DNA of 14,505 nt from Bacteriovoracaceae bacterium (GTDB lineage: Bacteria > Bdellovibrionota > Bacteriovoracia > Bacteriovoracales > Bacteriovoracaceae): NCBI GenBank assembly GCA_049599895.1, contig JBMYPC010000080.1, forward strand, positions 1 through 14,505, in the 5' to 3' direction. Both the position numbers and the translations under genes were made by a program. Positions 1,758 through 14,505 of this stretch are shown here, piece by piece. Position 1 is the first letter of the stretch, and each line of letters starts with the position of its first letter. The notes under the pieces were generated by a model. That model was not told the origin of the DNA and did no database searches. It was given only the letters and a program-made list of their open reading frames with translations.

Positions 1758-3146
1758 TTAGTGGTTGTGACCTGAAGTTTTGGATTCTTTCATTTCTTCG
1801 TAGCCACCAAAAAGTTGTGCTTGAGCATCAAGTAAGAAGTTTCCTTCGATCACGACTTCTTCGCCTTCCATTAATCCATGTTTAATTTCAACGTAACCTT
1901 CAGATTCATAACCTGCATGAACAGTTTTTGCCTGAAAGTTCTTTCCAGAAACCTTGACCCAGACGACTTTTCTTTTACCGGTATCAATTACTGCCGTTCT
2001 TGGCACAACAAGAGGCATTCCTTCTATATCTACATTTAAAACTGCATTTGCGATCATTCCGGGCTTTAGCTTGCCTGAAGCATTTTCTATAGTAGCTCTA
2101 ACCTTTAATGTTCTTGATTTTTGATCTAAGACAGGGTTTACAAAATCTATTTCACCTACAAGCTTTTCCCCCGCAATAGCAGTAAACTCTAAGTCTACCT
2201 TTTGTCCGATCTTAATTAATGATGAATCATGTTCATATACATCCATCTCGACCCAAACATCTGCTAAGTCTGATAGTTCGAAGAAGTTCTGCCCTTCTTT
2301 AAAGTATTTACCAACAGTAGCATTTCTTGATCTAACAATACCTGTTGCGTTTGAATAAATTGTAATTTGTCTTGGAACCTTCCCTTTTTTGAACCAATTT
2401 TCAAATTGGAACCTCTTAATCCCCCAAAGTTTAAGCCTTTCAATACTCTGCTCTAACATATCTTTAAATTCTTTAGTTTTGCTTTTTGCATAACTTTTTC
2501 GAGCTAGTAAATATTCTTCTCCAGCAGTAATTAGTTTAGGGCTATATAGATCAATTACAGGATCGCCAACTTTAACCATACTACCAGTTGATTTAACATA
2601 AACCTTTTCGACTCTCCCACCAATTCGAGCGGGGATATTGCTCTCCTTCTCCTCTGACTGGAGAACAGAACCAAGTAATCTAATTTTCTTAGTCATTTTC
2701 ATCGTTGTTACAGGAAAGAAGTCTGGCTCAAAATGTTTGAACTGAGCTTTTCTTAGTTTTACTTTTGCTACAATTTCTGCGGCTTTCTTTTCCTTTGGCT
2801 TTTTGACCATCGGAGTACCATCTATAGGGCAAACATCTTCTGTCTCGCTTGTCACATCAGGAAAATCTTTACATTGCCAAATATCTTTTTCAGGAACGAC
2901 AGTCGCCGTTTTAATATCTTCCTCCTCGTCAACTTCAATCTTTGTTAAATTCATATGACATATTGGACATTTCCCCATTTCTTTTTCTTTAATTTGTGGG
3001 TGCATAGAACAAGTATAATAAACCTTCGTCTTAGAGTGTTCATGCCCTTCGTGGGTTTTGCTTAAATCACGAGAGCCTTCTTTTTGACATGAAACACCTA
3101 TAACAAGGAGAAACATTAAAAATATAACACTGATTAACTTATTCAT
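1758..3146 (-). CDS. cusB: CusB-family RND periplasmic adaptor with lipoprotein-like signal, His-rich linker and heavy-metal-binding domain(s)
   Basis: YYTCSMHPQI...GKCPICHMNL metal-binding motif; adaptor core ARIGGRVEKVY, LYSPKLITAGEEYL, DLADVWVEMDVYE, LKPGM, GNFLLDAQAQL; lies between the TolC-like gene and cusA. Confidence 0.92.
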   Translation of the reverse strand: MNKLISVIFLMFLLVIGVSCQKEGSRDLSKTHEGHEHSKTKVYYTCSMHPQIKEKEMGKCPICHMNLTKIEVDEEEDIKTATVVPEKDIWQCKDFPDVTSETEDVCPIDGTPMVKKPKEKKAAEIVAKVKLRKAQFKHFEPDFFPVTTMKMTKKIRLLGSVLQSEEKESNIPARIGGRVEKVYVKSTGSMVKVGDPVIDLYSPKLITAGEEYLLARKSYAKSKTKEFKDMLEQSIERLKLWGIKRFQFENWFKKGKVPRQITIYSNATGIVRSRNATVGKYFKEGQNFFELSDLADVWVEMDVYEHDSSLIKIGQKVDLEFTAIAGEKLVGEIDFVNPVLDQKSRTLKVRATIENASGKLKPGMIANAVLNVDIEGMPLVVPRTAVIDTGKRKVVWVKVSGKNFQAKTVHAGYESEGYVEIKHGLMEGEEVVIEGNFLLDAQAQLFGGYEEMKESKTSGHNH

Positions 3147-4338
3147 TTAAGGACTCACCTTTAACATACTTTAATGTTGCTCTCTTAATATCTCTTTTTG
3201 CTTCTAGCATTACTTTATGCATGAGGATTTTTTGTAATTTAAGCTCACTTTGAAGTAACTCAACATAAGTAGAGCTACCAAGGCCATAAGACTTAGCAGT
3301 TATCTCTCTTGAATTACGAGCAAACTTAATAGTTTTTTCTTTTAAAATACTTAATTCTCCTAAAAGTTTATCAATCTCTTTACTCAATACAGATATATCT
3401 CTATTTTTTTGCCTCTTATAGTTTTCAAAGTTTTTAACGGCCATATACTTCTCTTGAACCGCTTGCCCATGTTTAGAATACTTTTCTCCAGAGAACGGTA
3501 GAGGAAAGCTAATTTCAGCTCCAACAAAGTCTCCGTTCCCATCAGTATTTGATCTTTTTGTGTACCCTAGAGATATGGTTAAATCCGGAACATAGTTTTG
3601 CTTAGAGGCAGTTAAAGCTAAATCTTTAGCCTTTAGCTTTTCTTTTAAACTAAGCTCCTTATTATCTTTTAATTTATCTGAACTTGTTTTGAGAGACTTC
3701 CAAGGTATAGAAGTTTCTTCAACATCAGAAGTTCCTATTAAATACTTTAGCCGATCGTCTATTTGAGATAGTTCGTATTTCTTATTATTTAACTCACTTT
3801 CAATTTCAGACTTTCTAATTTGAATATCAAGAAGCGCTTGCTGAGATGTTTTTCCTGTAGAGTATAACCTTTTACTAACATTAAGGATTTTTGAAATCCA
3901 TATGTTGTTCTCTTTTAAAATCTCTAGCTCTTCGGATACTTTCCTTTTGATAATCAATATTTCCCAAAAAGCCTTAGTGAGAGCTTCTTTTTTATCATCT
4001 GCTTCAAACTGATATGCATTTGAAAGAGACTTAAATGCATCTTCAATATTTCCATATTTTGTCGTTAAAGCTATCTTCTGTGAAACACCAAACTCAATTC
4101 CAGTCATAGGGGTTTGGTCATCTTTCAAACTATCCTTAGGAAAATTCTTGGCAGCAATTTTAAACTTTGGGTCTCTCCATGATCCTTTTAATTCTGCTTC
4201 TTCACTTAAAGCTTTTGATTTAAAGTTCACCGAATCTACGCTCTCGTGTGCACTCAGGACTTTTATGGCCTTTTCAAAGGTAATAGCATTAGCTTCTACA
4301 GAGCCAATTAAGAAAAGAATAACTAAATACTTCATCAT
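3139..4338 (-). CDS. TolC/CusC-family outer-membrane efflux protein
   Basis: Signal peptide MMKYLVILFLIGSVEANA; DPKF, QTPMTGIEFGVSQ, YVPDLTISLGY motifs; operon position. Start moved from the track's 4368 to ATG 4338, which overlaps the upstream stop as ATGA. Confidence 0.85.
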   Translation of the reverse strand: MMKYLVILFLIGSVEANAITFEKAIKVLSAHESVDSVNFKSKALSEEAELKGSWRDPKFKIAAKNFPKDSLKDDQTPMTGIEFGVSQKIALTTKYGNIEDAFKSLSNAYQFEADDKKEALTKAFWEILIIKRKVSEELEILKENNIWISKILNVSKRLYSTGKTSQQALLDIQIRKSEIESELNNKKYELSQIDDRLKYLIGTSDVEETSIPWKSLKTSSDKLKDNKELSLKEKLKAKDLALTASKQNYVPDLTISLGYTKRSNTDGNGDFVGAEISFPLPFSGEKYSKHGQAVQEKYMAVKNFENYKRQKNRDISVLSKEIDKLLGELSILKEKTIKFARNSREITAKSYGLGSSTYVELLQSELKLQKILMHKVMLEAKRDIKRATLKYVKGESLNE

Positions 4339-4556
4339 TTTAATATCTCTTTTGATTCTCTTATCCACTTATCAACCTGCTTTACTTCATCTATATCATT
4401 ATCAATTAACTGCTTTACTCCGGGAACTTTATAATACCAAGGGTACACAGTTGTATTTCCATGACAGTCAAAACAAGATTTCTGAAAAATTGGCTTCACA
4501 GTCTTTAAGTATTCTTGATTTATTCTAAAAATAAAAAGCAATAGAAGAACTTTCAA
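4335..4556 (-). pseudogene. Internally deleted haem-binding-domain (Haem_bd-like, c-type CxxCH) protein
   Basis: VKPIFQKSCFDCHGNTTVYPWYYKVPGVKQLI matches the N-terminal half of the Haem_bd family. The LNF/MPP...H segment is absent and the sequence jumps to a KWI-type C-terminus. TTG start with a GGGGG RBS. Confidence 0.65.
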
Positions 4557-4732: not shown

Positions 4733-5263
4733 ATGGGAAATCCATTTTCACATTTAGAAGATGAAAAGCTCATGGAGCTTTATAAGAATGGTGAAAATAT
4801 GGCCTTTGAAGTTATTTATTTGCGACATAAAGATCGAGTTTATAGCTACCTAGATAAAAGATTGTCCGATAAGAATATTATCGAAGATATATTTCAAAGT
4901 ATTTTTGTTAAGTTCCATAATTCACGACACCTATATAGTAGCAAGCACCCACTTTTAAAGTGGATATATACAATATGTAGGAGTGAGCTTCTTGACTCAA
5001 TCAAGAAGAATAAAGCTAAGTTTGTTCAGTTAAGTGAAGATCAATTGAGCGTAGAGCCAACTGAGCTTAATGACAAAATTGATCTTGATTCGAGTAAAAC
5101 ACTTTCAGAAAAAGAAAAACAGGCCCTGAAGCTTCGTTATTATTCCGAAGAAGACTTTATCGAAATCTCTAAGGCCCTTAAGACATCTGAAGCAAATTCA
5201 AGAAAGCTTGTTTCAAGAGGCATCAAAAAGCTTAAAGCAAAATTACTAGGAGAAACAACATGA
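4733..5263 (+). CDS. ECF (sigma-70 group 4) RNA polymerase sigma factor
   Basis: DEKLM...G...AFEVIYLRHK, EDIFQSIFVK, KWIYTICR (region 2); LSEKEKQALKLRYY...EISKAL...SRKLVSRG (region 4); 176 aa. Confidence 0.92.
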   Translation: MGNPFSHLEDEKLMELYKNGENMAFEVIYLRHKDRVYSYLDKRLSDKNIIEDIFQSIFVKFHNSRHLYSSKHPLLKWIYTICRSELLDSIKKNKAKFVQLSEDQLSVEPTELNDKIDLDSSKTLSEKEKQALKLRYYSEEDFIEISKALKTSEANSRKLVSRGIKKLKAKLLGETT

Positions 5264-5790
5264 TTGATCCTAATGATAAAAAAGACTTCCAAGATTTTAT
5301 GAACTCCAAAGGAGTTAATCCTCCAGAGGAATTAAGTAATAGAATATTGAGCTTTGTTCAAGCAGACTTAAACCCAGCTCATAAAGTTGTATTTTCAAAG
5401 CTTCTCGCCATTCAAGCGTTTATAGGTTTCTTGACTCTTACATTTTGCCCACAATTTAACCTTAGCTTAACTAATAACTTTGAAATTTTTCACTATTTTC
5501 ATCATAAGTTTGGAGAAAATATTTGTATGGCCATATGCGGTTCTATTTTTATGGGTAGTGGTGCCCTATTTGCGGCTTATCTTTTAAAACCTAGCGAAAT
5601 TAGAAAGATCAAAGAATCAAGATTCTTGTACTATACTTCCATATCAATAGTTGCTCTCTCGTTCTTTTTCTTATTAGGATCAGATATATACTTAACATTC
5701 GCAGCATTCTGGCTTTCAGGTTCTACAATTGGCGGCTTAGTTATATTTGAATTGAATAGGCTAATAAGAAAAGAAGTTTTCGACTATTAA
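5260..5790 (+). CDS. Putative membrane anti-sigma factor with Cys/His-rich loop
   Basis: ATGA overlap with the sigma gene; short soluble N-terminus then about 4 hydrophobic segments; FCPQF...FHYFHHKFGENICMAICG between TM1 and TM2. Confidence 0.68.
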   Translation: MIDPNDKKDFQDFMNSKGVNPPEELSNRILSFVQADLNPAHKVVFSKLLAIQAFIGFLTLTFCPQFNLSLTNNFEIFHYFHHKFGENICMAICGSIFMGSGALFAAYLLKPSEIRKIKESRFLYYTSISIVALSFFFLLGSDIYLTFAAFWLSGSTIGGLVIFELNRLIRKEVFDY

Positions 5791-5802: not shown

Positions 5803-6203
5803 TCAATCATCACATAATTCACCAATGAAAAGATCAAGTTCGACATAACTGTTTTGTAACAGCTCATACTGTATGAACCCAATAGGAATTGTTTTAACTG
5901 AATAAATACTAGCATATCCCATAACTTTATTTTCTTTTATTAAAACTAAAATATAGTGACCATCTTGGGTTGTAGAATCCATTTATTTCGTACTGGCCCA
6001 AAGTCATCTCGACCTGTGATTTGTTCATAAGGACCAATCATATAACCATAGTCGTATTCATTACCTTCAATTAAAACGAACTTATTTGTCAGCATCTTTG
6101 CTACGTTCATGTCCGTATAGTTTTTAACTGGTGTAAAAAATATTTTTCTTGTAACTATCACCGTAATTATTAGCAATATAATTAAAACTGTCTTCTTAAT
6201 CAT
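5803..6203 (-). pseudogene. Frameshifted exported protein, paralog of 6228..6569
   Basis: Track ORF stops at 5946. A frame change near 5980 continues DSTTQDGHYILVLIKENKVMGYASIY...LCDD* (stop 5803-5805), which aligns with TSDGSVVIVLTKNKKVVGFVRI of the neighbour. Both share YDxGYxIxPYxxxxxRD. Confidence 0.72.
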
Positions 6204-6227: not shown

Positions 6228-6569
6228 TTATTCTATCGATTGTAAAGGATTTTTAAGAGTGTCTGTTTCTTTACCGCGCAAGATACGAACAAAACCTACC
6301 ACTTTTTTATTTTTTGTAAGAACTATAACAACCGAACCATCACTCGTATTTCCATGCTCAAAAAGATTTCTTAACTCAGAGAAATCAACTCCATCTCTAT
6401 CCTTGAACTCATCGTAAGGCTGTATTACGTAACCTGAATCATATTTTTCGCTTCTAGGGAGCTTGGAGCTACGGATCAATGATTCCCTTATCACTTCTTT
6501 GTCAAAGCTGTCGTAAGGATCTAGCTGCATACAAGAAGTTAAAATCAATAAACTTATAACCTTAATCAT
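6228..6569 (-). CDS. Hypothetical lipoprotein (candidate immunity protein)
   Basis: MIKVISLLILTSC lipobox-type signal; ATGA overlap with the upstream DUF6973-like gene; paralog immediately downstream. Confidence 0.7.
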   Translation of the reverse strand: MIKVISLLILTSCMQLDPYDSFDKEVIRESLIRSSKLPRSEKYDSGYVIQPYDEFKDRDGVDFSELRNLFEHGNTSDGSVVIVLTKNKKVVGFVRILRGKETDTLKNPLQSIE

Positions 6570-7070
6570 TTTACTATTATCCTTAATTCATTTTTTTTGA
6601 TTGCCTCCAAAGCCTTTTGGCTTATCAAGTTTAAAAGATCTTTCTTCCCCCTAAGCTTCTCACCAACAATCATTCCCTTATTATTGTTATGCAAGTCCAT
6701 TTCTCTCTCAATTTTAGGTTGTCCTGGTTTTTCTTCATGAGCATCAAGAAATTTCTTTGCTCTTTCTTTTCCTAATCGAGCAGTAGAGATACCCGACCAT
6801 ACAAAATGTCTAAAAGCATCTACCTTATTATTACGGGCAAACATACCTGGAAAGGTTTTTGCCGTTAATTGGTAAGCATCTTTCATGCTGCGATACATTT
6901 GAAATGCGGCATATGGATCTTGCATTATAAGAATAGCTTCTTTCTTCATTTAAAACTATTTCTTCCCCATCTAGTTTAAACATGTTTCTAATTGCTGGGA
7001 GAATCTTGATTTCCATACTCTTTTCAATTCGTTTTGTAGATGAACTATCTTTACTCATATATACTTCCAA
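6566..7070 (-). pseudogene. DUF6973-like (DAFRH...DAHE...MDLHNN) protein, frameshifted near 6941-6947, 5' end degraded
   Basis: NKVDAFRHFVWSG, AKKFLDAHEE, EREMDLHNNNKG. Track ORFs 6831..7070 and 6566..6949 join as ...EEIVLNEE/EAILIMQDPYAA with a single-base shift in GAAGAAAGAAG. The 127-aa ORF from 6949 could still be translated alone. Confidence 0.68.
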
Positions 7071-7229: not shown

Positions 7230-7372
7230 ACAGCACCATACAACACCATGACTTGTGGTTCAAAGTCTTTAATTTTATACACTTAAATGTCTTTCATGGT
7301 GCTGATTTTGGAGGTGAAACATGCTCTATAGAATCAAATATTTATCCAAAGAATGACGACAAAAATACTACA
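7230..7372 (-). repeat. att-like site, homologous to 11220..11307
   Basis: Minus strand 7316-7262 CACCTCCA-AAATCAGCACCATGAAAGACATTTAAGT-N7-ATTAAAGACTTT, then 14 nt, then GGTG-N6-GGTG (10-bp repeats at 7230-7249). TGTAGT/TGTCGT pair upstream at 7372-7356. Confidence 0.7.
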
Positions 7373-7447: not shown

Positions 7448-7807
7448 TCAGTCGATATAGAAGCTTTTTATTATTTTAAAAACCTTATTTTTTCTAAAAA
7501 TAATCACTCTTTGATCATAGTCTGATGTCCCAGAATCTTGCTTTGTGTAGATCCAAGTTTCTTCAACAGCGTCATAATCCTTCACCAACTCTAGTGGCCT
7601 TCCTATAAGCTTGAGAACAACTTCGTCTTCCATGCCAAGCTTTATTTTACTAAAATTCTCTTCATTAAAGCTTTCTGCCCAAATTGTTCCTTCATCAATT
7701 GCCCAAACGACTCTCCAGAAGGCATCATTTATGCCATAGCCAAAGGTATACATATTACTTACAGTAGCCATAGAGAACATAACCGCAATCGCAAATAACA
7801 CCTTCAT
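7448..7807 (-). CDS. Exported/membrane-anchored SmpA/OmlA(BamE)-like domain protein (Y, copy 1)
   Basis: N-terminal hydrophobic segment; FNEENFSKIKLGMEDEVVLKLIGRP...WIY...IIF...V pattern; roughly 40-45% identical by manual count to 12673..13041; ATGA overlap with the upstream gene. Confidence 0.8.
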   Translation of the reverse strand: MKVLFAIAVMFSMATVSNMYTFGYGINDAFWRVVWAIDEGTIWAESFNEENFSKIKLGMEDEVVLKLIGRPLELVKDYDAVEETWIYTKQDSGTSDYDQRVIIFRKNKVFKIIKSFYID

Positions 7808-8388
7808 CCTCTACCTCGCTTTGAGAAGTTATTTAAAATTGATTTATCTCTTTTACTCCTGATATAGGGGTTCCCTCTTTGAGGGAAAACAGGCCTTGCG
7901 TTATCTATTTCATGATGACAAACCATTTTGAAAGTTGTCTCAAAATCAAGCCATCCATGATCACTCACATTATAGGCTATGGTTTTTTTCTTTGAATTTC
8001 TTTTGACATCAAGAATGACTGTGAGCCGTTCTCCCCACTTTCCTTTTAAATATCTAGGCTTCTTATTATTAAAATGTTTCTCTGAAACTGCGACTTTAGC
8101 AATCGCAGAAACTCTCAAGCCCCTTCCGTCTGTAGAGACTTCAACTGTTGTAAAGTCATAAAACTTCCACCAGTTCTTATGTCTCTGAATTGCCTTACCA
8201 TCCACTCTTTTAAATCCATCAAAGTCGACTCCTTTTGGAGTTTTGAAGCCTCCTGGTAGAACTCGAGCAACAGGCCCACCAGTTGTATCATTTTCAACAA
8301 CCCAAAGATCAATCTTGGAATAATTTTTAACACTCCCATTAATTCCAAGTTTTTTCCAAATACTTTTAAGATAAGAAAAAGTGCTCAC
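7804..8388 (-). CDS. Basic two-domain protein: unknown N-domain plus DUF3892-like C-domain (X, copy 1)
   Basis: GTG start after TAAGGG; C-terminal ARPVFPQRGNPYIRSKRDKSILNNFS resembles the DUF3892 YxRSxxD...NNL motif; about 120/190 identities by manual count with 12104..12676. Confidence 0.82.
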   Translation of the reverse strand: MSTFSYLKSIWKKLGINGSVKNYSKIDLWVVENDTTGGPVARVLPGGFKTPKGVDFDGFKRVDGKAIQRHKNWWKFYDFTTVEVSTDGRGLRVSAIAKVAVSEKHFNNKKPRYLKGKWGERLTVILDVKRNSKKKTIAYNVSDHGWLDFETTFKMVCHHEIDNARPVFPQRGNPYIRSKRDKSILNNFSKRGRG

Positions 8389-8400
8389 ATTGAACCCTTA

Positions 8401-9175
8401 TTACTTTTTAAGCTTTTTTACAGTCTTAAGTGTCTGCTCAAGTTCTTCAAGATATTCTGTTTCACCTTCATCTCGCAAATGCTCTCTTTTCTTTTTTTCG
8501 GACAACCTTTCCATCAAAGCTCGTAAGCCCCATGTTAGGTTTATTACTGTCAGCCCTTTCTATGATTAGTTCGGCTGCAGTTTTTCCAGTTTCAGCAAAA
8601 AGAAGTTTATTTTGGATACTGGAAAAAAACTCTTTTGTTTTTGGATGATCTTTGGAGTAGTCCACACTAGTCTCTTTAACAAGATCTCGCACTTTTTGAT
8701 AAAACCTCTTCTCAGAGGCCCTAATATCTTTAATGCGCTCAAGAAGTTCATCAAAATAATCCCAGCCACCCGGCTCTTTAAGACGTTTGTCGTTCATAAC
8801 AAAGCCTTTAACCAAGTAATCATTAAGATGATCTGTTGCCCATCTTCTAAATTGAGTGCCACGTTCTGAACGAACTCTATATCCTACCGCCAAAATAGCC
8901 TTGAGATTATAGTGGTTTATTTCTCTTTCTACTTCTCTTGACCCTTCTTGTCGAACTATCCGGAAATTCCGGATAGTTGCTTTTTCCCTAAGCTCAATCT
9001 CCTCATAGATGTTTTTCAAGTGCTCATTAACCGTTTTAACACTGACAGTAAAAAGCTCTGCCATCTGATTCTGGGTTAACCAAATTGTTTGATTTTCATG
9101 GTCTAGCTTGATCTCAAGCTCAACTTCTCCATCCTCCGTACTATAAAGAATAATCTCACCTTCATTTGCTCTCAT
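8401..9175 (-). pseudogene. rhuM: RhuM-family DNA-binding protein with internal deletion and frameshift
   Basis: TIWLTQNQMAELF, YNLKAILAVGYRVRSERGTQFRRWAT, YFDELLERIKDIRASEKRFYQKV, KPNMGLTSF. After GKVVRKK the usual AKNYL...LNR...DW segment is missing, and a tail KREHLRDEGETEYLEELEQTLKTVKKLKK* sits in another frame ending at 8401. Confidence 0.85.
8954..8978. repeat. Perfect 12-bp inverted repeat with 1-nt centre inside rhuM
   Basis: AACTATCCGGAA-A-TTCCGGATAGTT, encoding the ATIRNFRIV segment. Confidence 0.9.
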
Positions 9176-9519
9176 AAGTTTCTCCCAACACTCAGTAGGA
9201 CTTTTTGCTTCTCAAGGCCTAGAGACTTCACAAGCTTTATTAGTTGATCTTCAACACTCTCATCTGTGGTTTGCTTACACTTTGAGTTAAATAACCGTTT
9301 GCTCACGCCATATACATCTAAAATACTCTGCAAGTCTTCACCACTAGGCACATCAAGGCGACCCTTTTCAATATGGCGAAGATAGGCCTCAGACTTAGCT
9401 AAACGTCTTGCCGACTCTCTTATGGAAAATCCACTCAACAGTCTTAGCTCCTTAAGAACTCTTGCCTCTTTGGTCAATTTTATTTCTTCTGTTCGTCGGT
9501 GTCTAAGTTTCGTTTTCAA
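9172..9519 (-). CDS. Xre/Cro-family HTH transcriptional regulator
   Basis: LKELRLLSGFSIRESARRLAKSEAYLRHIEKGR HTH. TTG at 9519 preceded by GAGAGGAAAG is preferred over the track start 9570. ATGA overlap with rhuM. Confidence 0.82.
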   Translation of the reverse strand: MKTKLRHRRTEEIKLTKEARVLKELRLLSGFSIRESARRLAKSEAYLRHIEKGRLDVPSGEDLQSILDVYGVSKRLFNSKCKQTTDESVEDQLIKLVKSLGLEKQKVLLSVGRNL

Positions 9520-9535
9520 TCTTTCCTCTCTGAAA

Positions 9536-9611
9536 TGACTACAGTGCGTAGTCAAAAATACAAGACTCATTCGATAACTACAAGACTTTGTCGTTCGTCA
9601 CTACAACTACA
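9536..9611. promoter_or_regulatory. Palindrome TGACTAC-N5-GTAGTCA plus clustered ACTACA/TACAAGACT repeats
   Basis: Palindrome at 9536-9554; TACAAGACT at 9559 and 9579; ACTACA at 9538, 9577, 9600, 9606 and again at 9787 and 9797. Confidence 0.6.
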
Positions 9612-9709
9612 ATGATTTTGAATGATTTCCAGTGGTATGGCCAGATGCCGTAAAAATGGCGGACAGACTATCAATGGCTTATGATTAAAGGAGTTAGGGA
9701 GAAAGGGTG

Positions 9710-9733
9710 CCACCACTGAAAAACCAGTGGTGG
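9710..9733. repeat. 9-bp stem hairpin overlapping the tmRNA-type CCA end
   Basis: CCACCACTG-AAAAAC-CAGTGGTGG. Confidence 0.75.
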
Positions 9734-9750
9734 AGGTGGAGAGACCTCTC
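9728..9750 (-). other. tmRNA/tRNA-Ala-like 3' fragment (att core) with collapsed T-loop
   Basis: Minus strand GAGAG-GT-CTCTC-CACCTCC-ACCA: 5-bp T-stem, 2-nt residual loop, 7-nt acceptor strand, ACCA end. Confidence 0.62.
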
Positions 9751-9808
9751 TAAGTTTTAGTAATTGTTGATAGAGATTCAAAAAGAACTACAGATCACTA
9801 CAAATTCT

Positions 9809-10912
9809 CTATTTTGCAGTCGATGAATTCCACTTAGTTTTACTTAAGACAAAGTAGGTTATGAAACCAACCATCATACCAGGAGCAACCTCGTACATCG
9901 TACCTCCAAGCCCAAACTCACGCCAAAATAAAGTAACTCCAACTCCATTTACGACCATCAGTATAGCCGTAGTTTCTGAAACTTTTTTTCCTAATGCATA
10001 CACAAGCATTAATGGCCCAAAAGCCGCTGACAAAACTGACCAAGCAATAAGAACAAGTTCAAATACATTTTTACTTCCGAATAACGCAATTAAAAGTGCT
10101 ACTACCGTCACAAGACCAGTTGTTACCTTTGTAATAAGAAGGGTATCTTTCTCTTTAGGTAAAATATCTCTAGTAAAGGCTGCACTACAGCTCAGTATTT
10201 GAGAGTCTGCAGTAGACATTGTCGCTGAAAAAATTCCAGCAAGTACGACACCAATTGAATTATCTATAGCTAATCCTGTTGGAGTTACATCTAAAAAACC
10301 AGGAGAAACGGCGTTCAATTTTGCAATATATTGATCAAAACCACCAACTTCACTTACTCCAACAAAAAAGAGCATAGACATAGCAAAGATCATAACGATT
10401 GATTGGGCCGCATCTGTCCAAATAGAAGCTCTAATTCCTCCAGATAGACAATAAAGAAATACGATAACACTACCAATGATTGCACCAGTACTATAATCCC
10501 AACCAAAAAGAACATGGAGCGCTTTACTTCCAGCTCTGAATTGAGCTGCAGCATACACTCCTAAAAAAACCACAGTTATAATACCAACTAACAATCTTAG
10601 TTTTCTAAAATCAGATCCATGCTGCCATCTTGATAAGACACCACCAAAACTTAACAAATTTTCACTTTCGGTAATTTTTCTTAATTTTTTATGAACAAAG
10701 AAACTCATAATAAGGTCACCAAAAATCCATCCAACCAACCATAAGCCAGATAGATTGAAGCCCAGAAGTATACGTGTAACCAATCATCCCAATAAACATA
10801 TAACCACTATTACTAGTGGCAATGGCAGATAACGCAGCCAACCAGGGAGGTATATCATGTCCAGCTAAAAGGTAATCAGAGTTGCTTCCCTTACTCTTGA
10901 ATAAGGAACTAG
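9809..10912 (-). pseudogene. Sodium:solute (PutP/OpuE-like proline) symporter pseudogene
   Basis: SDYLLAGHDIPPWLAALSAIATSNSGYMFIGMIGYTY in the upstream frame; 4-bp duplication (TCCATCCA, 10726-10733) shifts the frame; in-frame loss of the GQPH...ELAL region near 10250 (NSIG/VVLAGIFSATMSTADSQ); no start codon or first TM. Confidence 0.85.
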
Positions 10913-11106
10913 AGCTACAAGTATTTTTAGTATTCTATTATCTTGATAAGAAAATTGATTACACCTCCCTAGAGGGATGGGAGCTTTATCGAGATATTGA
11001 TTATGATACTTCAAAACCTGTTAAAACCCGTTTGTTCAATCAAGGGCAGATAATTACTAGTATAGAAAAAAAGAGAAAAAAACTTCTTTCAAAAAATAAA
11101 AAGTAA
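10910..11106 (+). pseudogene. Probable C-terminal fragment of an unknown gene abutting the truncated symporter 5' end
   Basis: Open frame ...LQVFLVFYYLDKKIDYTSLEGWELYRDIDYD...KNKK*. The track's start lies inside antisense symporter sequence, consistent with a deletion junction near 10910. Confidence 0.35.
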
Positions 11107-11202
11107 AATAAAAATCTTCAACCCTGATATAATTAAAAATGTAGGCCACTCTTGTCAGTCTTATCTTTACAGTTTTCACTTCAATTTATGATATTACAGC
11201 GC

Positions 11203-11307
11203 GGGGTGGCGACGACAAGCACCTCCACCAAAATCGACACCAGAAAGGCGGTTTAAGTTTTTGTTATTAAAGACTTTTATCTTTTTGGTTGGGTGCCACC
11301 GGGTGCC
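11203..11307 (+). other. Collapsed tmRNA-like remnant / att core plus island-end motifs
   Basis: GGGGTG-G-CGACGACAA-G-CACCTCCACCA (11203-11230), then AAATCGACACCAGAAAGGCGGTTTAAGT-N7-ATTAAAGACTTT, and GGGTGCC repeats at 11291 and 11301. Confidence 0.6.
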
Positions 11308-11323
11308 GGGGTTTTGGTGGAAA

Positions 11324-11378
11324 ATCAAATGCTTATAAAAATAAGCACCCCTTGGAAAATAAAATATAAGCATTTGAT
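11324..11378. promoter_or_regulatory. 14-bp perfect inverted repeat with an extra internal half-site upstream of the PIN operon
   Basis: ATCAAATGCTTATA (11324-11337) / TATAAGCATTTGAT (11365-11378); additional ATAAGCA at 11341-11347. Confidence 0.6.
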
Positions 11379-11431
11379 ATTGGCCGTAGGTGACGGTCTG
11401 AATTAACTTTAGTAGTTAGTGAGGACTGGTT

Positions 11432-11899
11432 ATGAAAAAAATAAGAGTATTTGTTGATACGTCAGTTTTTGGCGGTTGTTTCGACGATGAATTTAGAAAA
11501 GATAGTGAGGCTTTCTTTAACTTGGTCAGGAAAGGTCGTTTTCAAGTTGTTGTCTCAGAATTGATTTTAGAAGAACTGAAAGGGGCACCTAGTGATGTCT
11601 TTGATGTTTTCTTTAACCTTCCGAATGAAAACAAAGAAATATTGATTGAGGGTGAAGAAGTTTTTGAACTTAAGGATGCCTATATTCAAGCAGGTGTTGT
11701 TACTAAAAAATCTGAAAATGATGCTTCTCATATTGCGATTGCCTCTATTGCCAAGGTTGACCTTATTGTAAGTTGGAACTTCAAACATATTGTCCACTTT
11801 GAAAAGATTCGAGGATACAACGGAATAAATATAATTAAGGGCTATCAGTCGATAAGTATTCATAGCCCAAGTGAGGTTATTGATTATGAAAAAGAATAA
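11432..11899 (+). CDS. PIN-domain (VapC-like) ribonuclease toxin
   Basis: RVFVDTSVFGG, VVSELILEEL, NDASHIAIA, DLIVSWNFKHIV; GAGG RBS. Confidence 0.9.
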   Translation: MKKIRVFVDTSVFGGCFDDEFRKDSEAFFNLVRKGRFQVVVSELILEELKGAPSDVFDVFFNLPNENKEILIEGEEVFELKDAYIQAGVVTKKSENDASHIAIASIAKVDLIVSWNFKHIVHFEKIRGYNGINIIKGYQSISIHSPSEVIDYEKE

Positions 11900-12083
11900 G
11901 AAGTTTGATTGTGTAAAAATGAAAAATGAAATTCAAGCTAAAATTCTAGAAGAGAAGAAAAAGTTCTCGTCAGAAGAAGAGTATAGAAAACATCGAATGG
12001 AAGAATTGATGAAAGATGAGCGCTTGAGCCAGCTTTTGAAAAATGCTAAAAAAATTGGTGATTCCAAAGGGGATGCGGCTTAA
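11886..12083 (+). CDS. Small charged protein downstream of PIN, probable antitoxin
   Basis: MKKNKKFDCVKMKNEIQAKILEE; ATG at 11886 overlaps the PIN 3' end and follows GAGG; 65 aa, predicted helical. Confidence 0.7.
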   Translation: MKKNKKFDCVKMKNEIQAKILEEKKKFSSEEEYRKHRMEELMKDERLSQLLKNAKKIGDSKGDAA

Positions 12084-12103
12084 TTGACATTAAGGGAAAA
12101 GAG

Positions 12104-12676
12104 ATGGGTTTATACAATAAGCTTAAGTCAATATGGAAGAAACTCGATATTAACGGGCAGGTGATAAATTATTCATCTAAAGAGTTGTGGGTTATTGAAA
12201 CAAAGAATGGCCCTGTCGCACGCATATTACGCCCTGGTTATAAAACACCGATTAAATTAGATATTGATGGATTTAAAAGAGTCGATGGCAAGGCTATAGA
12301 GAAGCATAAAAATTGGTGGAAATTTTACGATTTTTCAACAGTTGATGTATTTGATAATGGGGCGAATCTGAAGATTTCTGTTATTACAAAAATAGCAGTA
12401 GATGAAAATCATTTTAAAAAGCCTAAGTATTTGAAGGGACTATTTGGTGAACCTATTAGGGCCATTGTTGATATAAGAAGAAACAAAAAAGGCGTCATTG
12501 AGCAGTATAAAATATCAGATATTGGTTGGGTTAGCTTTGAGGATGCTTTTAAAATGGTTTGCTATCACGAGATTGATAATGCAAGACCTGTTTTTCCTAA
12601 AAATGGAAAACCTTATATTAGGTCAAAAAGAGATAAAAGTATTTTAAACAACTTGTCTCTCAAAGGAAAAGCATGA
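12104..12676 (+). CDS. Basic two-domain protein: unknown N-domain plus DUF3892-like C-domain (X', copy 2)
   Basis: ATG after TAAGGG; shares LKSIWKKL, GPVAR, DGFKRVDGKAI, HKNWWKFYDF, HEIDNARPVFP, PYIRSKRDKSILNN with 7804..8388. Confidence 0.82.
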   Translation: MGLYNKLKSIWKKLDINGQVINYSSKELWVIETKNGPVARILRPGYKTPIKLDIDGFKRVDGKAIEKHKNWWKFYDFSTVDVFDNGANLKISVITKIAVDENHFKKPKYLKGLFGEPIRAIVDIRRNKKGVIEQYKISDIGWVSFEDAFKMVCYHEIDNARPVFPKNGKPYIRSKRDKSILNNLSLKGKA

Positions 12677-13041
12677 AACTCTTAAAAGCATCTCTTGCCA
12701 TGAGCATAATATTTCTTTTTGGTGTTGGTATTAATATGTACAGATTTGGATATGGTTTTGAAGATGGTTTCTTTAGAACTTTGTTAGCGCCAATGGAAGG
12801 AACAGTGTGGGCCGATGGCTTTTCGGAAGAGGCTTTTGATAAAATAAGTATAGGGATGACAGCAGAGCAGGTTTTTTCTATTTTAGGTGAGCCCCTTGAA
12901 AAAGATAGTGATTGTCATAAGTTATGTTTTTGGACCTACTCATGGCAGGATACTCAGACTGCTGATTTTGACCAAAGGTGGGTAGTTTTTAATAGTCAAA
13001 ACCAGGTTATTGAAAAACGAAAGAGCTTTTTTATAGATTGA
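12673..13041 (+). CDS. Exported/membrane-anchored SmpA/OmlA(BamE)-like domain protein (Y', copy 2)
   Basis: Hydrophobic N-terminus; FSEEAFDKISIGMTAEQVFSILGEP...WTY...DQRWVVF; paralog of 7448..7807; ATGA overlap. Confidence 0.8.
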   Translation: MKLLKASLAMSIIFLFGVGINMYRFGYGFEDGFFRTLLAPMEGTVWADGFSEEAFDKISIGMTAEQVFSILGEPLEKDSDCHKLCFWTYSWQDTQTADFDQRWVVFNSQNQVIEKRKSFFID

Positions 13042-13351
13042 TTCTAAGTATTGCTACGCTTCATTTAGTGCCGTGGTGTTGTTGAGATTCCAGGTGGTTA
13101 AGCTGTATTGGCCCTATTTCAATGCTGAATGAATTGTTGCTCATGCAGGAGGGGAGAATCAAACCCACTGTGGGAACCGTACTCATTTCTTAAGTTTGTT
13201 TTTAGTTTGCTCCACAAGAGTGTGGTTCTTCCTATCTTGGAAAGTTCATAGATGTTTCGCTGTGAGGATTGACTTCTCATTGAAATATTCAATCGAGTAT
13301 TTGTGTGGTAAATAATTTTAGTACAAATTTTAAATTAGAGAGAAGATTTTG

Positions 13352-13689
13352 ATGAAGTTTGAATATCTTGAAAGAGGTGATCCAGAGATTTGTGAAGTAG
13401 TACTTCGCTCTGTTCCTGATTGGTTTGGGATAGAAGAATCAACGGTTGCTTACATAAATAAGTCTAAAGAACTTCCTATGATTAGTGCGTTTGAGGATGG
13501 AAAGGCTATTGGTTTTTTATCACTATTGCAACACAGTCAATATACCACCGAAGTGTATGTCATGGGAGTTGTTCCCGAATATCATCGTAAAGGTGTTGGG
13601 AAAAAGTTATTGATTGAGGCGGAAAAGGTTTTAGCAAAAAATGGAATAGAGTTCTTACAAGTTAAAACAGTAAGTGCTGATAGAGAGTG
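13352..13689 (+). pseudogene. GNAT acetyltransferase truncated by IS3 insertion
   Basis: VPDWFGIEES, EVYVMGVVPEYHRKGVGKKL (acetyl-CoA motif A), FLQVKTV. The track ORF's last residues EVPQKHWTFFL are IS-derived. Confidence 0.85.
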
Positions 13690-13753
13690 TGAAGTTCCCC
13701 AAAAACACTGGACATTTTTTCTGTAGCGGTTATAACTCTGGGAGGAGTAAACC

Positions 13754-14077
13754 GTGGAAACAAAACCTAAGAAGAATTCTTACAGTAAAGAGTTTAAAAT
13801 TCAAGCAGTTGAGCGTTGTAAAGTCGTTGGCATAAAGAAGGCCAGCGAGGAGTTGGGTGTCTGTACAGCTTCTCTTTCAAACTGGAAAAAGCTCTTTGAT
13901 CCATCATCGGACAAGTCAAAATCTAAAGACAAGCCTACTTACGAGGAGCTTCAAAAAGAAGTTATAAGACTCAGAAAAGAGCTTGGCTATGTTGAAGAGA
14001 TCAACGACATTCTAAAAAAAGTACGGCAATCTTTTCGAACGACAAGTTTCGAGGTTCGAAGTGATTTCTTTCGTTAA
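13754..14077 (+). CDS. IS3 OrfA (HTH transposase subunit)
   Basis: YSKEFKIQAV...ASEELGVCTASLSNWKK...LRKEL...NDILKK; GGAGG RBS, GTG start. The native-looking tail STAIFS is out of frame, suggesting one A was lost from the run at 14014-14020. Confidence 0.85.
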   Translation: METKPKKNSYSKEFKIQAVERCKVVGIKKASEELGVCTASLSNWKKLFDPSSDKSKSKDKPTYEELQKEVIRLRKELGYVEEINDILKKVRQSFRTTSFEVRSDFFR

Positions 14078-14505
14078 GACTGAGAGCTCGATAAACATTC
14101 CAACCCGCTTTCTCTGCCGTCATTTCAGAGTAAGCCCCAGTGGGTATTATCACTGAAAGAAACGTCACTCTGGGATCAGATTTGTGAATAAGGAATCAAT
14201 CTGTAAAAGGATCAAGGAGATCTTTGAAGAGAGTAAAGAAACTTATGGTTCTCCTCGAATCTTCGAAACCTTAAAAGATGAGAATTTATCAATCTCTTCC
14301 CTCAAGACCAGGAGAGCTTCTCGCTGGAGATATTACTTACCTGAGGCTTGGGAAGAGCTTTTTTTACCTCTCGGTTGTCATTGATCTTTTTAATCGAGAG
14401 ATTCTTGGTTGGTCGATGGGAAACAGTCTTGAGACGAAACTTGTTCTTGACTCGCTTGATATGGCGATGAAAAAAGTTGGTCCTGATGCGGAAGTGATTT
14501 TTCAT
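14020..14505 (+). pseudogene. IS3 OrfB (DDE transposase) with nonsense codon and internal deletion
   Basis: LCRHFRVSPSGYYH* (TGA 14154-14156 where W is expected); deletion and frame change near 14296 between ENLSIS and LPSRPGELLAGDITY. Confidence 0.85.

Follow-up and report, generated by a model that had tools for sequence, protein, structure and literature searches.

The window analysed here is one whole contig of 14,505 nucleotides (JBMYPC010000080.1) from the 3.27-Mb, 97% complete draft genome GCA_049599895.1 of a Bacteriovoracaceae bacterium (Bdellovibrionota). It contains two intact copies of a two-gene module in which a small basic protein, X, is encoded directly ahead of an envelope partner, Y. 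This module is real, it is under selection and it is undescribed: the openly readable literature searched contained no description of the X head, of the alternative partner Z or of any DUF3892 fusion accompanied by an exported partner. Structure prediction indicates that X consists of an undescribed beta-sandwich head of about 105 residues on a DUF3892 tail. That X and its partner act as an effector and its antidote is likely. The more specific reading preferred here, to which we give an even chance, is that X would be a small toxin that attacks the cell envelope from within the periplasm, that Y or Z, encoded behind it, would be the antidote, and that the system would be directed outward in the manner of a bacteriocin. 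A toxin-antidote function is supported by the linkage of X to its partners, the exchange of these partners, the C-terminus that they have in common, the existence of a lysozyme-like second head, an asymmetry in gene decay, the basic nature of X and acidic nature of Y, and published parallels.

The first pair lies on the minus strand, with X1 at 7804-8388 (194 aa, GTG start) and Y1 at 7448-7807 (119 aa); the second lies on the plus strand, with X2, the predicted effector, at 12104-12676 (190 aa) and Y2, the predicted immunity protein, at 12673-13041 (122 aa). In both pairs the stop and start codons overlap as ATGA and a TAAGGG precedes the start of X, and the open reading frame (ORF) calls agree in this with the initial annotation, which had been made by inspection of the DNA. 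X1 and X2 are identical at 119 of 190 aligned positions (63%, tblastn E 5e-76), as had been counted by hand, while the figure of about 43% for the partners becomes 45% (53 of 117 aligned positions, E 4e-27). A tblastn search of the genome detected no third X-Y copy.

X2 opens with an amphipathic helix (residues 3-12), followed by the beta-sandwich head (about 15-119) and the DUF3892 tail (about 120-190). The tail lies above the Pfam cut-off of 22.3 bits in X2 (29.3 bits) and below it in X1 (19.9 bits). No other Pfam family matches X1 or X2 at E up to 0.05, hence there is no ColM, DUF6973 or wnt match, and X has no match in PHROG or NCBIfam. A prediction based on 86 aligned sequences, out of 99 matches from which mostly partial or over-long ones were dropped, gave for the whole protein an N-terminal helix, an all-beta head and the DUF3892 tail (predicted local distance difference test, pLDDT, 88.8); the head alone was predicted as an all-beta sandwich with a pLDDT of 95. 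There is no hydrophobic segment (top 19-residue hydropathy 0.54 and 0.66 in the two copies), and in amphipathicity residues 4-14 come third among 183 windows in one copy and eighth among 179 in the other. The lack of a signal peptide, the amphipathic start and the DUF3892-like tail had already been recognized in the initial annotation. X is basic (pI 10.2 and 9.8) and Y acidic (pI 4.9 and 4.7).

As its distribution among relatives indicates, the head is a mobile domain. A profile search recovered 193 representatives at E up to 0.001, and among 205 head sequences 124 carry the tail and 81 do not, fragments being counted. G18, N22, S24, P49, D53, D55, W71 and K73 show a conservation of 90% or more in tailed and tail-less heads alike; H68 is conserved in 98% of the former and 83% of the latter. 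Tail-less heads stand alone, follow hydrophobic leaders or form the C-terminus of larger proteins, which include an extracellular contractile injection system (eCIS)-core protein and a leucine-rich repeat protein. Nibrella saemangeumensis has tail-less heads that follow hydrophobic leaders, and Flavobacterium akiainvivens has a relative of Z, so that head and Z both reach the Bacteroidota. A pore-former likeness seen by eye in the N-terminal part of the protein P0207 was not confirmed, and a nonribosomal peptide synthetase of 4575 aa (P0251) gave four weak matches to the X profile, which are possibly spurious.

Y belongs to the BamE/SmpA fold family: Y2 scores 27.5 bits and Y1 22.6 bits against a Pfam cut-off of 23.2, and there is a match in the Protein Data Bank (PDB) at E 0.007. 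Y is not housekeeping BamE, since it scores 17.6 against an NCBIfam cut-off of 93, has no lipobox and is patchily distributed, and ordinary BamE-like lipoproteins score far lower and lie elsewhere. The initial annotation had Y as a BamE-like exported protein; the likeness stood, but Y appears, from reading its sequence, to be anchored in the membrane and not freely exported, and the alignment of Y sequences (A2) shows no lipobox cysteine. Y2 shows an N-terminal anchor, the BamE-like domain, a cysteine pair and the C-terminus FFID. The pair is present in 36 of 38 Y sequences and lacking in Y1, which ends in FYID. Because the N-terminus is positively charged and followed by a single anchor, and because of the cysteine pair, the Y domain is predicted to lie in the periplasm. 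Z is a protein of about 120 (or about 165) residues with several transmembrane (TM) segments and a GxWP..PDPK loop. It has no Pfam match and no detectable homology to Y (hhalign probability 0.1%).

The linkage between X and these partners was followed through 18 genome loci (16 of the 18 with Bdellovibrionota-type titles), 35 metagenome loci and the loci found in 401 genomes of the phylum. Among 39 distinct X genes, counted when head and tail are in one frame and after collapsing identical sequences (both copies of the window are counted, as are the two members of a near-identical pair), Y stands directly behind in 24, Z in 14 and a contig end in one; the gap is at most 15 nt in all 35 cases measured. 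An adjacent gene for an anchored two-cysteine protein or a 3-4 TM protein, the layout of colicin M-type immunity, accompanies 38 of the 39, as judged from sequence. The initial annotation had considered an obligate X-Y linkage: seen from X, the linkage to a partner is indeed obligate (38/39, the last gene lying at a contig end), but it is not always Y, as Z replaces it in 14 of 39. Since the Z profile was seeded from X loci, a reverse search was run from Y and Z through the 401 genomes. Ten of 13 Z matches follow X or an X remnant and the other three have no X; for Y, nine of 12 strong matches follow X or a remnant, two have no X and one is at a contig edge.

On a 35-row tree of X the partner label changes five times, three of these changes being forced by starred branches, and from this phylogeny the partner is taken to have been swapped three to five times. 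The two unrelated partners have nevertheless the same kind of C-terminus, aromatic-aromatic-hydrophobic-Asp, which reads FFID or FYID in Y and WFLD, WFYD or WFFD in Z. It is found in all 38 Y sequences of the alignment and, among complete partners at the loci, in 19 of 21 (Y) and 10 of 10 (Z), against a background of 2 in 3234 genome ORFs; distant relatives of Z keep a C-terminal W-x-x-D.

The tail is not restricted to X. Most DUF3892 matches in the same phylum are proteins of about 220 aa with an RNNNPGN motif, more common than X, which match the PDB entries 9vvp (Gp29, E 3.5e-12) and 7q47 (endolysin, E 3.6e-7) and a PHROG endolysin, and whose tail is the one found in X (hhalign 99%). These lysozyme-like proteins lack a hydrophobic start as well. 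In 23 of 28 distinct loci the directly adjoining gene on the same strand encodes a hydrophobic N-terminus, whereas under the same rule 77 of 257 control ORFs (30%) have such a neighbour; the five misses comprise two loci with little upstream sequence, one gene under the threshold, one partner-like gene on the opposite strand and one broken gene. The partners are often DUF4431 proteins, beside several other unassigned exported ones, and the loci often lie beside toxin-antitoxin (TA) genes. DUF4431 may be a lysozyme inhibitor; it is not mentioned in the literature searched. Beside a few short DUF3892 genes that stand alone, an exported-type partner is missing. Y or Z never occurs at a lysozyme-like locus (0/28), and the identity of Y tracks that of the X head (rho 0.56) over that of the tail (rho 0.29; length-matched, 21 loci), so that the partner follows the head. 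The comparison of domains and gene order shows a modular family in which a constant C-terminal DUF3892 tail carries either a beta-sandwich or a lysozyme-like head, each with partner families of its own. One constant module, interchangeable heads and partner genes particular to each head is the pattern by which polymorphic toxins are recognized, with two heads in this phylum.

In the preferred reading, the X-partner pair would be read from the promoter of the TA or Xre-type genes that it often follows, and hence be made under stress. X would leave the cell by lysis or leakage, with DUF3892 serving as a handle for release, uptake or targeting. The basic head, with the conserved residues D53, D55, D61, H68, W71, W72 and K73, would then bind an anionic target in the envelope, for example lipid II or undecaprenyl phosphate, and exert its toxicity on the outer side of the inner membrane, where the partner would block it through its free, periplasm-facing C-terminus (FFID in Y, WFLD in Z). 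The choice of lipid II or a related anionic lipid, argued by analogy, is the weakest step.

The closest analogue seems to be colicin M, and the best reading is that the X-Y pair would work like a colicin M-type toxin-immunity pair without being a colicin M member by sequence. As described for Cmi, BmiB, BmiA and PmiA in the available text of the sources, a small toxin gene stands in that family beside the gene of an anchored, periplasmic two-cysteine protein or of an unrelated protein that has 3-4 TM segments and a short, conserved motif in a loop; the key residues of Cmi are at its C-terminus, and there is often no lysis gene (PMC5821083; PMC4661593). Unlike colicin M, X has no ColM domain match, its head is all-beta, its putative effector domain is N-terminal and it ends in DUF3892. 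In the structure search bearing on a ColM fold the best Z was under 5, and the matches listed were beta-sandwiches. Type IV secretion effectors of the X-Tfe type in Xanthomonadales carry a constant C-terminal XVIPCD tail. They resemble the present family in their variable N-terminal effector domains, lysozyme-like ones included, and in the adjacent cognate immunity gene, as far as the source was accessible (PMC10933484), but the tail of X is DUF3892 and the genome has no VirD4 or VirB4 match. A survey of lipid-head-group toxins presents membrane-anchored BamE-like proteins as their commonest predicted immunity proteins and also lists 4-TM proteins (PMC12419801, 10.1101/2025.01.14.632903). It also describes, in the portion available, broken-hairpin-tailed toxins, where a short C-terminal domain found on many signal-less toxin heads is itself proposed to be a trafficking device; these are said to lack immunity genes, and by the paper's description their tail is set apart from DUF3892 (PMC12419801).

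Several observations weigh against an envelope toxin directed outward. The initial annotation could not assign a conserved block of X, and fold searches with whole X and with the head alone returned nothing at Z >= 5 or E <= 0.001, nor did the head profile find a PDB sequence match. The best structural matches of the head (Z 4.8-4.9) are generic beta-sandwiches, with no toxic or catalytic fold among them, and beta-sandwiches frequently serve as binding modules. The head is also part of a protein with a weak hydrolase-like match (P0206) and, in 9 of 81 tail-less sequences, lies behind a hydrophobic leader. Charge counts favour only weakly a Z topology in which loop and C-terminus face the periplasm like Y. 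Related loci are not independent of each other in any of the tallies. With mean identities of 55% for X and 45% for Y the pair is conserved and not hypervariable. A broken X beside an intact partner was seen in eight loci and the reverse in one (L033), an asymmetry with p 0.02 that weakens to 0.08 after correction for gene length. No TA-type gene recognised by Pfam lies upstream in 16 of 30 loci, and no lysis gene was recognized beside the X-Y pair. Finally, X has no signal peptide, and the search for an export route, limited to four secretion-system markers, found neither VirD4 (PF02534) and VirB4 (PF03135) nor TssC (PF05943) and the contractile sheath (PF04984) in the 97%-complete draft genome; lysis or leakage is therefore the default exit. 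Two further comparisons were not used or serve as leads only: the likeness of the head to cholesterol-dependent cytolysin domain 4 or aegerolysin (Z 2.6-4.3) is tied with unrelated sandwiches, and the ESM Atlas gave no usable feature match for X, the best being 0.89 for a stand-alone head.

The lack of any marker of type IV or type VI secretion or of a sheath also suits a different explanation, namely that X stays in the producer, where DUF3892 would sense phage infection through RNA or altered ribosomes and the head would damage the cell's own envelope, so that infection is aborted and Y or Z merely mop up leakage. We regard this as rather unlikely, although it has a precedent in print. Fusions of Min-Wnt (lipocone) domains to DUF3892 have been proposed as intracellular antiviral effectors, and like X they have a signal-less N-terminal head, in their case predicted to attack lipid II (PMC12419801, 10.1101/2025.01.14.632903); the available supplements of that paper hold DUF3892 only as a network label. 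The X head differs from the helical Min-Wnt domain in being all-beta, without DUF6973 or wnt match, and is coupled to an envelope partner each time, while an exported partner is not mentioned for the fusions in the accessible part of the source (PMC12419801). DUF3892 operons are furthermore reported under control of the DNA-damage regulators CapP/CapH (10.1101/2022.04.27.489752), periplasmic immunity proteins of the X-Tfi type can, according to the text available, guard against self-intoxication (PMC10933484), and the tail is basic, as expected of an RNA binder. The anti-phage role suggested in the initial annotation is hence backed by published links between DUF3892 and defence, but not by PADLOC 2.0, in which X1, X2, Y1 and Y2 match none of the families at E up to 0.05. 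Furthermore, a constitutive antidote across the membrane would oppose suicide at the very site of action, and in other proteins the head follows a hydrophobic leader or forms the end of an eCIS-core protein, which points outward.

Genomic context could be read in favour of such a defence as well. With a threshold of E 1e-4, 14 of the 30 loci have a same-strand gene of the TA, Xre, Fic or AbiE type upstream, and with 1e-6 the number is 10; among 20 random 4-kb regions taken from the host genome there was one such case (80 of 96 control ORFs scanned, threshold 1e-6; Fisher p 0.03 at matched threshold); HVO_A0114, DUF6932 and DUF4258 are here taken by us to be TA-type. The link with TA genes is common and not required, since several X genes follow ordinary genes, and it may reflect shared integration sites only; tRNA genes occur in 12 of 43 loci scanned.

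The module is patchy, the X head being found in 10 of the 401 phylum genomes, often in two to four copies, and it is maintained by purifying selection. For X, the ratio of nonsynonymous to synonymous substitution rates (dN/dS) lies at 0.03-0.17 in 11 of the 13 pairs compared; of the other two, one is saturated, and in the other, which is very close, the value of 0.48 derives from few changes. In most cases the partner evolves faster. Against the closest relative of the window module, dN/dS is 0.065 for X and 0.095 for Y, far from the value near 1 that would have spoken against the earlier claim that selection keeps the pair. Between the two window copies it is 0.17 (X) and 0.33 (Y), with dS near saturation. 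These copies had been called a duplication. Two copies there are, but Y1 and Y2 as sisters are rejected (approximately unbiased test, p-AU 0.0006), so that a local tandem duplication is rejected for Y and a divergence of specificity after duplication is not supported; the toxin-immunity role to which the latter had been attached is still the best supported. X1 and X2 as sisters are not rejected (p-AU 0.2), although this is not the best tree. Judged by these trees, the window pairs probably represent two subfamilies, X1 belonging to the second, and with synonymous sites almost saturated, separate acquisition is likelier than local duplication.

Purifying selection that is strong and leaves little diversification, a beta-sandwich without enzyme match and a C-terminal motif that suits a docking site as well as an inhibitor would all be expected if the head simply docked on the partner's C-terminus for kin recognition, anchoring or signalling, with no toxicity involved. 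This is improbable, as the same tail carries a lysozyme-like enzyme in the same gene layout, neither Y nor Z contains a cytoplasmic output domain, X decays oftener than its partner and the pair is scattered over few genomes in several copies. Least probable of all is a selfish addiction module that stabilizes islets linked to tmRNA or tRNA genes through post-segregational killing, with a membrane antidote and no outward target: att-bounded islets with TA genes, the tRNA genes at the loci, multiple copies and frequent decay fit it, but X is produced in the cytoplasm, whereas its antidote sits on a membrane anchor and is predicted to point into the periplasm, and no X or Z relatives were found in viral contigs or in plasmid or phage records.

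Returning to an envelope toxin with its antidote, a wider version can be formulated, which we consider possible but doubtful. DUF3892 would be a trafficking or uptake tail and not an intracellular phage sensor, and would define undescribed bacteriocin-like envelope toxins with lysozyme-like, lipocone or beta-sandwich heads, hitched to TA promoters for release under stress; the beta-sandwich head would be a new fold of lipid II or membrane toxins, and two unrelated antidotes would have converged on a C-terminal plug. Among predators that invade the periplasm of their prey, such toxins might be weapons against rival predators. The module as a whole offers a testable alternative to the published proposal for DUF3892, a domain of defence-linked operons. 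Its head is a candidate for a new fold of envelope toxins, and the four-residue C-terminus of its partners may be an instance of convergent immunity. It would also be a case of toxin-based competition in Bdellovibrionota, of which no description was found in the literature searched.

In the window both pairs close a four-gene cassette that begins after an att-like core, as the initial annotation had laid out. The 11-mer core, CACCTCCACCA, is identical to the 3' end of the host's transfer-messenger RNA (tmRNA) and occurs three times in the genome: in the tmRNA, at 9728-9738 (minus) upstream of cassette 1 and at 11220-11230 (plus) upstream of cassette 2. From its core, cassette 1 continues with an Xre-family helix-turn-helix gene that opens it (9172-9570, minus; HTH_31, E 3.6e-11), a truncated RhuM-family gene (8468-9175, minus; Pfam positions 1-164 of 252 covered) ending 79 nt upstream of X1, X1, Y1 and a degenerate att-like stretch 3' of Y1 (7262-7316, minus; 74% like 11225-11277), which closes an islet of 2.4 kb. 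Cassette 2 is opened by a PIN-domain gene (11432-11899, plus; PIN_3, E 1.1e-9), whose small partner gene (11886-12083, plus; no Pfam assignment), an antitoxin to judge by its position, lies 20 nt upstream of X2 and Y2. Integration at the tmRNA seems to be active in the host genome. On its contig (C83, 4463-6285) it is followed by a 441-aa ORF, integrase-like by eye, and by small phage-like genes. The RhuM gene is cut at 235 aa, another frame being open from about 8510 to just before the ribosome site of X1, and it matches the PADLOC candidate PDC-S05. A scan for promoters and terminators gave a result at chance level, and among the contigs aligned to the window none had a joint across either cassette.

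Between the two att cores lies a partial sodium:solute symporter gene (9809-10783, minus), and 3' of Y2 a GNAT gene and a broken transposase (13349-14384, plus). Further genes comprise efflux-type genes assigned by eye (1758-4368) and an extracytoplasmic function (ECF) sigma factor (4733-5263), to which a membrane gene (5260-5790) is coupled. Some 500 nt downstream of Y1 lies a signal-less gene of the DUF6973/Wnt-like (lipocone) type (6566-6949, minus; E 1e-23), which is coupled to a lipoprotein-like gene (6228-6569, minus), followed by a second small membrane gene (5946-6203, minus). This group has the appearance of a further envelope toxin accompanied by two candidate immunity genes, and the two small genes behind the lipocone gene weakly resemble each other (single comparison, E 4e-7).

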